Of a stretch of DNA of 64,000 nucleotides, positions 48,844-57,385 are shown piece after piece. The DNA lies in NCBI GenBank assembly GCA_964595645.1, contig CAZQQT010000001.1, positions 239,745 through 303,744 of the forward strand, written 5' to 3'. Position numbers and translations under genes: made by a program. Numbering within the stretch: position 1 is the stretch's first letter; the number at the start of each line of letters is the position of its first letter. The stretch is from an uncultured Thermococci archaeon. GTDB lineage: Archaea > Methanobacteriota_B > Thermococci > Methanofastidiosales > B48-G16. Under the pieces are notes generated by a model. The model worked only from the letters and a program-made list of their open reading frames with translations. It was not told the origin of the DNA and did no database searches.

Positions 48844-50374
48844 ATGGTAATGCGTAACAGATTTCGAACTGTTCATGTGGTAGTAAATACGCTCGGATCA
48901 CTATTCATCGTACTGGGCGGGTTTTTACTCGTCCCGCTGATCGTCGTAGTAGTCACTGGTGAGCTCCACCAGAACTTCAACACGTTTTTTGCATTTGTAC
49001 TGCCGAGTGGAGTTTCGTTTTCGCTCGGTATTTTGTGCAAGACACTGTTTCGTGGGAAGGCCCCTACGATGCTTCAGGCAATGTTAATATGCGCGCTGGG
49101 ATGGCCTCGGATCCTCTGCTGTTGGTGCACTTCCTTTTGTATTTGGAATAGACGCGAGCTATCTAAACGGGTACTTTGAGGCGATGAGCGGGTTCACTAC
49201 CACGGGAATTACCATGTTCACCGGTCTCGATCAGATGCCTAAGAGTATCCTGTTCTGGCGGAGCCTGACCCAGTGGGTAGGAGGGTTAGGGATTCTTACG
49301 TTTTTTCTGGCGGTGACGTATCGGGGAGGAGGTGCACACAGACTTTTCGGTGCCGAAAGTCACAAGGTGGGAACGGATCGTCTTGTACCCGGACTGATCA
49401 ACACCCTGAAGATGTTGTGGGTGATTTACACCGGATTTACCCTTGTCATCTTTACGAGCCTTTCACGTGCCGGGATGTCTATTTTTGACAGTATCTGCCA
49501 CAGTTTCACAGCCCTTTCTACCGGTGGATTCTCGCCCCACGATGCGAGTATTGGATTCTATCAGGCGTCAGGACATCCCCATTTTGTGCTGATCGAGTAC
49601 ATCCTCATCATCGGAATGGTGATGGGAGGAACGAATTTCCTTATCCATTATCGGGTACTGAAGAAAGACTGGCGGGCATTATTTGACAATATTGAGATGA
49701 AGTACTGGTGGGGACTTATTGGTCTGTTTGTCACGATTATTTTTGCGGAGAGGTTTGCAAATACAGGACTACTTGCACAGCTCTCATTTGAAACACTTGA
49801 ATTCTGGAGACAGGTAGAACAAACGATCCGTACCGTCCTCTTTCAGGTCGTTTCAATCATCACAACGACAGGATTCGGCACGGCGGATATTGGAGGAGTG
49901 TTCTTCGGACAGGTGGCAAAACAACTTTTTCTTGTCATGATGATCATTGGCGGCTGTGTGGGATCCACGGGTGGAGGCATCAAAGTGTTCCGAATAAGTG
50001 TGTTGACGAAATTGATCAAACGGGAAGTATTCCGACTGCGAACACCCAGAAAGTCCATTTCAACTGTGTTAATCGATGGATCTCCCGTAGATATTGATGA
50101 AATCTACCGTGTGAGCGGACTCTTTTTCATGTGGATTGTACTACTTGTAATAGGGGGCTGTATCACAGCATTTCTCTCTGATATCGGCGCATTTAGCTCC
50201 TTTTCCGGAATGTTCAGTGCGTTAGGCAATATTGGCCCCTGTTACATCCCTGTTGAAACAATGGGACAGCTCAATCCAGGGATTAAGATAACATATATAT
50301 TTGGGATGCTGGCAGGAAGATTGGAGATCCTGCCGGTACTGTTAATTTTTAGTCGTAAGGCATGGATATCGTAG
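48844..50374 (+). pseudogene. trkH: TrkH potassium uptake permease with a single +1 frameshift
   Basis: Removing one C at 49105-49106 gives ...ALGW-LGSSAVGALPF...YFEAMSGFTTTG, one ~509-aa ORF. Pore motifs TTTG, STGGF, TTTGF and NIGP are intact. May be a sequencing error. Confidence 0.85.
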
Positions 50375-54632: not shown

Positions 54633-54876
54633 ATACAAAAATACCGATCTAAAAACAGATATCACGTTAACTGCAATTAAATGGTTTACCATTGAGATCC
54701 CTAGAAATATAGGTTTCTATAGGGAGAATAAACAAAAAAATTTATTAAATTTCCGCTTGTTTTACGATTCAGATCCAAATTTCCTTGTTTTTTCTATTAA
54801 TAGTCATTATTTCCAAATTAAAAGTATTTTATCCAATGTATATTATTTATTCGACATTTTCCTTCATAAATCACCG

Positions 54877-55190
54877 AAAACAGAAACCTACACAGGCAAG
54901 GCTGTGTAGGAAGCTCACATGACATCATGTGAGCGTTTATTGAGATAACTTCTTCAGTAACTCGCTACAACTGGACATAGGTCTCCGACACTATGTCGAT
55001 CTGTGGTGAGTAACTGTTTTAAACCCTCTAAACCAACCTAACCCATGACGAGAAATTGGAGTCAATAAATCACAAAATGCGATTTTGTGATCAAATGACA
55101 GTGCTTTCACTGCGTTTCTAAAAACAGGTTTTTCTTTGCAGTACCGAAACACAACTGGACGTAGGTCTTCGACCTACGTCGATCTGTGAC
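54877..55190 (+). ncRNA. Candidate structured ncRNA or cis-element of unknown family
   Basis: Five-helix junction at 54877-55020, further hairpins at 55069-55091 and 55099-55112, and a repeated arm at 55151-55188 with a compensatory change. G-U pairs favour the + strand. Confidence 0.6.
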
Positions 55191-55285
55191 GCATAGTATT
55201 TCAAGAGAAGAAAATCTGGAATGGTGGTGGAAGAAGAGTAGTAGTGGGAGAGATCTCAGGATGAATTATGCAACCAAGCAAACAT

Positions 55286-55324
55286 AACCGAAACCTTTAT
55301 AAAGAAATTAGGCATACCTAATTT
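55286..55324 (+). promoter_or_regulatory. feoAB BRE-TATA promoter plus DtxR/Idr-type operator
   Basis: accgaaacctttataaa followed by the palindrome AAATTAGG-cata-CCTAATTT (55305-55324). Confidence 0.75.
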
Positions 55325-55544
55325 GATGAGGTTGAGCGATGTGAAGGAAGGCCGCGAGGTACGAATTCTCTCCTTGGAAGGAGGCAAGGGGTTACGGGTA
55401 CGACTCACTCGTATGGGGATCCATCCTGGAGATCGAGTGATTGTAGAGAGAAACAGCTTCGGACCTATTCTCATAGAGCTCCATGGAAACTCTATTGCCC
55501 TCGGGAGAGGTATCGCTGCAAAGGTGGAGGTGGAACCTCTGTGA
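55323..55544 (+). CDS. feoA: Ferrous iron transport protein A
   Basis: RLTRMGIHPG...GP...IALGRG.A. Start may be ATG 55326. Confidence 0.92.
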   Translation: MMRLSDVKEGREVRILSLEGGKGLRVRLTRMGIHPGDRVIVERNSFGPILIELHGNSIALGRGIAAKVEVEPL

Positions 55545-57385
55545 TTATCGCTCTCGCAGGTCAACCAAACTCCGGCAAATCCACGATCTTTAACCAGGTT
55601 GCAGGATACAAAACAGTGACCTCAAACTTCCCTGGAAAGACGGTAAAGTACACCAAGAGCACCGTAAAGGTGAGAGGGGAAGAGTTTGAAGTTGTCGATC
55701 TTCCCGGTACATACTCTCTTACCTCCTCGGATCTGGCGGAACTCGAAGCAAGGAACTATATTCTAAAAAAAGAAGCAGATGTGGTTATTAACGTAATAGA
55801 TGCATCTATCCTTTCTCGCAGTCTTGAGCTCACTATTCAGCTTGCTGAACTTGAGGTCCCTATGGTGCTCTGTCTCAATATGACGGACGAGGCAGAAAAA
55901 AAGGGTATCCACATCGATACAGAAAAACTCGAAGAGATCTTTGGAGTACCTGCAGTCACTACAGTTGCAAACAAGGGAGTGGGGACCAGAGAACTATTTG
56001 CCACGGCCCTAAATCAGAAAAAAAAACCTAAAAAACAAGAGTACAGTAAAGACATCGAAAAAATTATCGAAATGCTCATTCCAAAGATAGAAAATGAGCC
56101 CAAAAGGCTCACCGCTATTAAAATCCTCGAGGATGACGAATTTTTTACAGAAAATACAGATGTGGACTATAAACGATATCAGAGAATTCTTGAACGTTCC
56201 CATGGTAAATCCTGCGATCTTGTTATCTCATCCGAGCGGCATGCCCTCTCAATGAATATATTTGAGAAGGTGGCAACAGTGGGGGAACCCGAAAAGCCAT
56301 TGTTTGATCTAGATAAGATATTCATGGGGAAGCTGGGGTACCCTATCTTGATCGTACTTTTATATGCGTTATTTTATCTCGTATTCAAGGTAGGAGGTGC
56401 ATTTGAAGAGCCTCTTGTAGAATATTTTGATGATCTCGTTTCTAGTATCACACTGGGAAATCCACTGCTTCAGATAGTGGTGAGGGGAATCATCCAGGGC
56501 ATTGCAGGCGGAGTAGGTATCGTACTCCCTTACCTGCTTCCTCTGCTCCTGGGACTAGCGTTTTTAGAGGATGTAGGGTATCTTCCCCGAGTAGCCTTTT
56601 TGGTGGACAACTTCTTTCACAAGATAGGTCTCCACGGAAAGGCACTGATCCCGCTGATGTTGGGGTATGGATGTACCGTACCCGCTATCATGGGGACACG
56701 AATTCTTGAGTCGGCACGAGATAGATATATTGCTGGATTTTTGGCTGCCTTTGTTCCCTGTTCTGCGCGTACGGTGGTGATATTTGGACTAGCAGCGTAT
56801 TACCTCGGTCCAGCTGTTGCTTTCCTCCTATACCTCACCAATATTATATTTTTGGGATTTCTTGGCGTTGTTCTATCCAGACTCTATGAAGAGGAGAGTC
56901 CTGGGTTGGTACTGGAGATACCTTCTTTAAGAATACCCTCACTGAAAAGCATCCTCCTCAAGACATGGCTACGGATACGGGAGTTCATTGTCATTGCGTG
57001 GCCACTACTTATTGGTGGGAGTATTGTACTTTCCCTTCTAACCTACTACGGAATTGTGGATATCGTCAATACTTTCTTATCCCCACTCACCCTTCTGCTC
57101 GGTCTCCCCGCGGCAGTAGGCGTCACATTGATCTTCGGGATCTTGCGGAAGGAACTTTCGTTGATCATGTTGAAACAGGCGCTGGGAAGCTTAGAAGTAC
57201 TCTCAAAGACACAGATGCTCACATTCACCGTTTTTATCATGTACTACATCCCATGTCTCGCAACCATCGCAGCAATGATCAATGAATTCAAGATAAAAAA
57301 AACACTGATAATAGTGGGGGCCACGGTGATTGCCGCGTTATTTCTGGGAGTACTGGCGAGAGCGATAGGAATTGCTATATGGTGA
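55541..57385 (+). CDS. feoB: Ferrous iron transport protein B
   Basis: GQPNSGKS, NFPGKTV, DLPGTYSL, NMTD, LEDVGY, GYGCTVPA, PCSAR, YIPC. Confidence 0.96.
   Translation: MIIALAGQPNSGKSTIFNQVAGYKTVTSNFPGKTVKYTKSTVKVRGEEFEVVDLPGTYSLTSSDLAELEARNYILKKEADVVINVIDASILSRSLELTIQLAELEVPMVLCLNMTDEAEKKGIHIDTEKLEEIFGVPAVTTVANKGVGTRELFATALNQKKKPKKQEYSKDIEKIIEMLIPKIENEPKRLTAIKILEDDEFFTENTDVDYKRYQRILERSHGKSCDLVISSERHALSMNIFEKVATVGEPEKPLFDLDKIFMGKLGYPILIVLLYALFYLVFKVGGAFEEPLVEYFDDLVSSITLGNPLLQIVVRGIIQGIAGGVGIVLPYLLPLLLGLAFLEDVGYLPRVAFLVDNFFHKIGLHGKALIPLMLGYGCTVPAIMGTRILESARDRYIAGFLAAFVPCSARTVVIFGLAAYYLGPAVAFLLYLTNIIFLGFLGVVLSRLYEEESPGLVLEIPSLRIPSLKSILLKTWLRIREFIVIAWPLLIGGSIVLSLLTYYGIVDIVNTFLSPLTLLLGLPAAVGVTLIFGILRKELSLIMLKQALGSLEVLSKTQMLTFTVFIMYYIPCLATIAAMINEFKIKKTLIIVGATVIAALFLGVLARAIGIAIW

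Follow-up and report, generated by a model that had tools for sequence, protein, structure and literature searches.

The question raised by this locus is what the strongly folding 144 nucleotides upstream of feoAB (positions 54877-55020) represent. Here, the window is the whole stretch of DNA analysed, 64,000 nucleotides corresponding to G000:C1:239745-303744, where G000 denotes the source genome. An earlier note had described the 144 nucleotides as a five-way junction with a mutually exclusive alternative fold, and had considered a novel archaeal ncRNA, a metal-related switch for feoAB or the end of a single-stranded DNA mobile element. The observations presented below are best explained, with a probability of about 0.88, if these nucleotides are the cargo of a genus-specific, promoter-hugging, non-autonomous MITE descended from an IS903-like insertion sequence of the IS5 family.

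Helices P1 to P5 were present where the earlier note had placed them, and the five-way junction is the minimum free energy structure of positions 54877-55020. The + strand folds at -66.9 kcal/mol compared with -33.1 ± 3.6 kcal/mol for shuffled sequences (z = -9.4; 0 of 200 shuffles as good), i.e. the fold is real, and the minus strand at -52.9 kcal/mol (z = -5.9). The three G-U pairs described for the + strand (one in P4, two in P5) and the alternative stem pairing 54955-63 with 55008-16 were also recovered. As had been supposed, the structure corresponds to no known Rfam RNA; the best match had an E value of 2.8 and no family came near its gathering score. Rfam searches of the locus and 13 related loci returned tRNAs only, with no match to a guide RNA. 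Inspection of the 4x4 loop revealed no fit to a K-turn or a bulge-helix-bulge motif, and the loop varies between copies.

P2, P3 and P5 each form a hairpin independently of the rest, and the four inner modules fold at -67.2 to -67.7 kcal/mol in whichever of their 24 orders they are placed. Given that module order leaves the energy unchanged, the low energy reflects hairpin density and no specific junction. The pairing probability of P1 was 0.9-1.0 only when 20 nt or less of flank was folded; with 40-150 nt of flank it fell to 0.1-0.36 and that of the alternative stem rose to 0.6-0.7. In these predictions, the “switch” between P1 and the alternative stem depends on the length of flank that is folded. 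The + strand gives the better fold of the long P5 hairpin in 4/4 copies tested and the minus strand that of P2 in four copies; thus, strand preference is mixed across modules.

Promoters were scored with a matrix trained only on tRNA promoters. The best site of the intergenic region, at 55289-55304, begins about 270 bp downstream of the fold, which therefore lies outside the feoAB leader. Upstream of the fold, no strong promoter was found on the + strand (best score 5.5). The orthologous feoA promoters of three further genomes (G001, G002 and G003) retain both promoter and operator, the cassette of hairpins is absent from them and their upstream DNA is different; in G001, a lone hairpin-B variant occupies the region instead. 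The operator is a conserved palindrome beside the TATA box and a predicted site for a DtxR-family repressor. Its 14-bp core recurs directly before a DtxR-family gene at G000:C10:36323, which suggests autoregulation of that gene. FeoAB is a known target of DtxR repression in bacteria and in some archaea (PMC8516115). Judged from the sequence, a repressor of DtxR type acting at 55305-55324 probably regulates feoAB, and since this candidate operator would explain iron control, no RNA switch is needed for it.

A metal-sensing riboswitch that controls feoAB through two alternative folds would fit the position upstream of feoAB and the similar energies of the two folds once flanks are included. It is nevertheless extremely improbable, given that the fold lies outside the feoAB transcript, is missing before feoA in G001-G003, has no Rfam similarity and recurs as the same cassette beside unrelated genes (the C4 copy described below), and that the putative DtxR-type operator already accounts for iron control. 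The metal-related switch proposed in the earlier note is thus not upheld, and the hairpins very probably do not sense metal.

To return to the MITE reading, positions 54877-55020 proved to be part of a dispersed repeat, with about eight relic or short copies in G000. A near-identical copy at G000:C4:177579-177963 adjoins unrelated genes, and partial or short copies lie on C11, C6 (three), C2 and at C4:19202. Many copies, often at contig ends, were observed in G001, the genome of a sister species (“Methanobacteriota archaeon MAG196”). A DNA search found the repeat in 2 of 61 genomes, both of the source genus, and a covariance model built on the structure of the earlier note matched 2 of 101 genomes, again both of the source genus and only at copies of the repeat; a novel archaeal ncRNA is therefore unlikely as an independent conserved RNA. 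A GTDB-wide search for the left-end pattern returned three G001 contigs and two single bacterial matches, the latter taken as chance, and pattern scans of metagenome and viral contigs gave no match. Likewise, neither the other flank of the C84 copy of G001 nor a G001 counterpart of the gene upstream of the window element could be found.

The alignments that define the window element are collected in Table 1.

Table 1. Features of the 426-bp element and its surroundings, in window coordinates
Feature	Position	Strand	Basis or remark
Whole non-autonomous IS5/IS903-like element, decayed copy (426 bp)	54855..55280	+	Alignment of ends and interior to G000:C4:177579-177963 and to ends of autonomous IS
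Left terminal inverted repeat, degenerate (11/18 match), outer part lost	54855..54872	+	Alignment to C4 copy, whose end is intact
BRE half of old transposase promoter; gives most of P1 5' strand	54873..54881	+	Aligns with left end of autonomous L043/L050
Multi-hairpin cassette (~135 bp) between BRE and TATA	54882..55016	+	Single gap relative to autonomous L043
P2 hairpin	54887..54910	+	C4 copy has a 51-bp two-hairpin insertion in P2
P3 hairpin	54913..54934	+	Extra pairs lengthen P3 in G001 copies
P4 hairpin, weak and variable	54937..54960	+	Folding and copy comparison
Long P5/alternative hairpin with hairpin-B core	54955..55016	+	All 11 bp of outer stem pair in G001:C68
TATA half of old transposase promoter; gives T-run of P1 3' strand	55017..55025	+	Alignment to autonomous elements; cassette-removal scoring
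Transposase start relic, MTRNWSQ then stop	55045..55065	+	Matches start of L042, L044 and L050 transposases
Hairpin A module	55061..55099		Other copies have hairpin A beside left end
Internal transposase relic (FTAFLKTGFSLQYR...)	55106..55159	+	Score 73, with 61 the highest among 1000 random segments of the genome; HMM search of whole genome, iE 0.022
Second hairpin-B copy	55150..55188		Compensatory A-T to G-C change
Right terminal inverted repeat, intact	55263..55280	-	17/18 identical to autonomous IS ends
feoA BRE/TATA promoter	55289..55304	+	Starts 8 bp outside right end; matrix score 17.0; conserved in G001-G003
Palindromic operator, probably for DtxR-family repressor	55305..55324		Kept before feoA in four genomes; 14-bp core shared with C10:36323
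feoA	55323..55544	+	Pfam FeoA, E 2e-20
feoB	55541..57385	+	TIGR00437 above cut-off

No family was found for the 359-aa ORF upstream of the element. Elsewhere in the window, a TrkH-like potassium-uptake gene (48844-50374) seemingly consists of two ORFs (111 and 396 aa), possibly through a frameshift.

When the cassette was removed in silico, the old transposase promoter was restored with a score of 8.3-12.1. Thus, P1 largely consists of the BRE A-run and the TATA T-run because the cassette split the transposase promoter between these two motifs. A longer piece of the internal transposase relic is kept in G001:C92. Copies of the repeat are bounded on both sides by an imperfect 18-bp inverted repeat. 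Among 34 genomes of the order, which gene content suggests is Methanofastidiosales within Thermococci, 10 contain autonomous elements with PF13737/NF033579 transposases of the IS5 family; these elements share the 18-bp end of the window element, and one of them (L044) is flanked by a perfect 9-bp duplication. Intact left ends of the repeat match the autonomous ends at 16/18 positions. A Klebsiella plasmid match of the same transposase has 18-bp ends that are 14-15/18 identical (3-4 mismatches) to those of the window element, and these plasmid ends are presumably those of IS903. A separate miniature family exists in a sister family of the order, where 499-bp internally deleted IS903-like elements retain both ends (L049 in G006 and L053 in G030).

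A 9-bp target duplication was observed in G001, where a right end terminates contig C57 and a left end opens C105, both bearing the same 9-bp flank; these are two contig ends joined by synteny, and the middle of the copy is unassembled. The orthologous site in G000 (C11:70209-70261) is empty, with the C57 and C105 flanks adjacent and element-free. No target duplication was found at the window copy or at the other G000 copies, and since the window copy has also lost its outer left end, it is probably immobile. Terminal inverted repeats homologous to those of an IS, a small size with no intact transposase, and dispersed copies together with an empty orthologous site are consistent with a MITE.

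No intact IS903-like transposase was found in G000 or in five other genomes of the family, which are drafts in whose assemblies repeats collapse, and we therefore infer the mobilising transposase. The only DDE_Tnp_1 gene of G000 (C1:22003-22995) was considered as a partner and rejected, being of IS5 type, broken and associated with different ends. This frameshifted IS5-type element is bounded by ends of its own, with a repeat of 7-8 bp flanking it, and elsewhere its ends coincide with contig breaks. In G001, a transposase-like ORF fragment lies just outside the left end of one copy (C66, 1580-1945). Two relic copies in G000 (C6:85028-85225 and 86518-86716) differ in the hairpin that they carry at one shared position and have no Rfam match; their tail resembles what we take to be IS605/TnpB-type ends.

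The suggestion of a mobile-element end was thus correct as regards mobility and not as regards single-stranded DNA. An end or guide RNA of an IS200/IS605, IS91 or other HUH element would agree with the abundance of hairpins and with some stems whose GTAG/CTAC feet are reminiscent of REPs. Such an origin is very unlikely, given that neither a Y1 transposase nor TnpB was found in G000, that the 13 related loci had no guide-RNA match in Rfam, and that the ends and duplication are of the DDE type, as for a double-stranded (IS5/IS903-like) MITE.

For 13 of 22 element ends, the best promoter starts 7-9 bp outside the end, compared with 1.2 expected (binomial p about 1e-11, with the qualification that the 22 ends are related and not fully independent). 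This adjacency explains the position of the element before feoA. A literature search found no paper on a fixed promoter distance of element ends. A second repeat type bearing hairpin B lies directly before BRE/TATA upstream of feoA (G001:C43) and upstream of a tRNA gene (G001:C80), and related elements arrived independently in the feoA promoter region of both species (G000 and G001).

The search for homologues and covariation called for in the earlier note yielded the dispersed copies described above and covariation in P2-P5, with the reservation that P1 is complete only in two near-identical G000 copies. Across nine aligned copies, 83% of cells pair and 11 pairs are changed on both sides (3 of 500 shuffles), a figure that is inflated by the kinship of the sequences. 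In the hairpin-B core, pairing reaches 100% across eight copies, and both sides of 4 pairs have changed. Covariation above shuffled controls is not required of purely passive cargo and is a point against the MITE reading.

Selection on folded RNA or DNA could maintain the pairing, as could template switching during replication, a process that makes and repairs hairpins (PMC8794818). In another reading, the cassette would be a functional structured + strand RNA, either domesticated or element-encoded as an aid to spreading, or a terminator or insulator. The covariation in P2-P5 and the better + strand folding of the long P5 hairpin in all four copies argue in this direction, and MITE transcripts are known to fold and to alter mRNA stability (PMC3733652). 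Against it stand the better minus-strand folding of P2, the incomplete P1 of all but two copies, modules that are freely gained and lost, the weak best upstream + promoter and the restriction to one genus among 101 genomes. An RNA function of the hairpins may exist, and this account of the cassette as a whole is distinctly unlikely.

The modules are inserted, nested and deleted between copies, and G001:C92 has a hairpin B nested in its own loop. Hairpin B is also found in places that lack IS ends: upstream of tRNAs, downstream of stop codons and ahead of G001 feoA. A variant with a paired deletion on both arms lies directly before a tRNA gene at G000:C6:33248. In G003, nrdD (C87, ~1430-1470) carries a 33-bp in-frame insertion that resembles hairpin B and is absent from the G000 ortholog; the chance expectation for this look-alike alone is estimated at about 0.3. 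Also in G003, an unrelated transposase gene of IS5 type (C47, ~418-470) contains a 50-bp insertion of two hairpins, absent from the G000 copy; the second of these is similar to a hairpin within the C4 element. REPs have been found within genes before (PMC3733652). In hairpin B, the tetranucleotides GTAG and CGTC are paired within the stem and are not unpaired tags.

These observations raise the possibility that the hairpin modules are small mobile palindromes (REP/RPE-like) with their own mobiliser, the IS relic being no more than a site where they often land. Such a reading is compatible with the MITE explanation, as it concerns the origin of the cassette. It would account for hairpin B without IS ends and nested in itself, for both G003 insertions, for the fully paired core with its double-sided changes and for the precedent of REPs within genes. 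Conversely, no Y1 transposase or RAYT was found in any of six genomes of the family, each genome has few copies (under ten), hairpins that stand alone could be what deletions left of MITE copies, the nrdD match is of the kind that chance could supply, and template switching can create or repair hairpins. On balance, self-mobile palindromes are considered a tentative explanation, clearly less probable than not.

Under the preferred reading of a MITE, the following course of events can be proposed. An ancestral IS would have lost most of its transposase by internal deletions, and a multi-hairpin cassette would have entered its promoter between BRE and TATA. The element would then have acquired further hairpins, nested them or lost them, in many cases at short repeats. 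Supplied in trans, an IS903-like transposase would have carried the element, through its ends, to the upstream edge of BRE/TATA promoters (in this case that of feoA), after which the window copy would have lost its outer left end and become stuck. The hairpins may be roadblocks or stabilisers for read-through RNA. A bolder and unlikely extension is that archaeal IS903-like MITEs are steered to the upstream promoter edge (e.g. by the TFB/TBP complex) and depend on a folded interior, which self-moving hairpin cassettes would provide here; these cassettes would also enter genes in frame. If true, steered MITEs and self-moving hairpin cassettes would constitute an undescribed two-tier mobile system in archaea.

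A tempting but false candidate for an archaeal iron riboswitch is removed, and a folded mobile element beside a metal operon can mimic one. The fixed distance of 7-9 bp from end to BRE/TATA points to insertion that seeks and spares promoters and could serve safe-site integration. Finally, the hairpin cargo stays paired while it is being shuffled.

Comparison with metal riboswitches (NiCo, yybP-ykoY and M-box) reveals a shared multi-helix junction near a metal-transport operon, whereas the window cassette has no Rfam match, lies outside the leader and is not conserved at the locus. Unlike IS200/IS605 elements, the window element has terminal repeats and a family in which one copy shows a duplication, in a genome with no TnpA or TnpB. 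REP/RPE palindromes (GTAG, CGTC) resemble the modules in being hairpins of 20-40 bp that are clustered or nested and sometimes lie in frame in genes, and differ in that GTAG/CGTC here falls in the paired stem and that no RAYT gene is present; in the survey of GTAG/CGTC REPs, archaea appear only in the references. Folded bacterial MITEs (RUP, NEMIS/Correia, ERIC/YPAl, Nezha and Bcr1) are likewise non-coding elements with terminal repeats and robust secondary structure near genes (PMC3733652; PMC4853749). By contrast, the window element has another parent IS and sequence, is archaeal, exists in few copies, varies strongly in its modules and is longer than the 70-300 bp quoted for the bacterial elements. 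Archaeal MITEs (the Halobacterium MITEHsal series and ISH2) are mobilised in trans through homologous ends, as proposed for the window element, and nested targeting has been described for them; they belong to other IS classes, and no description of fixed-distance promoter targeting or of a folded cassette was found in the account consulted (PMC7002104). The closest likeness is to the IS903 group and its derived MITEs, with which the window element shares 18-bp ends and relics of an NF033579/PF13737 transposase; a 9-bp duplication flanks one G001 copy and autonomous L044, and none was found at the window copy. Its interior, however, is no plain deletion product and element ends lie a fixed 7-9 bp from host BRE/TATA, so that its departures from described MITEs are the foreign multi-hairpin cassette in the transposase promoter and the fixed promoter distance.
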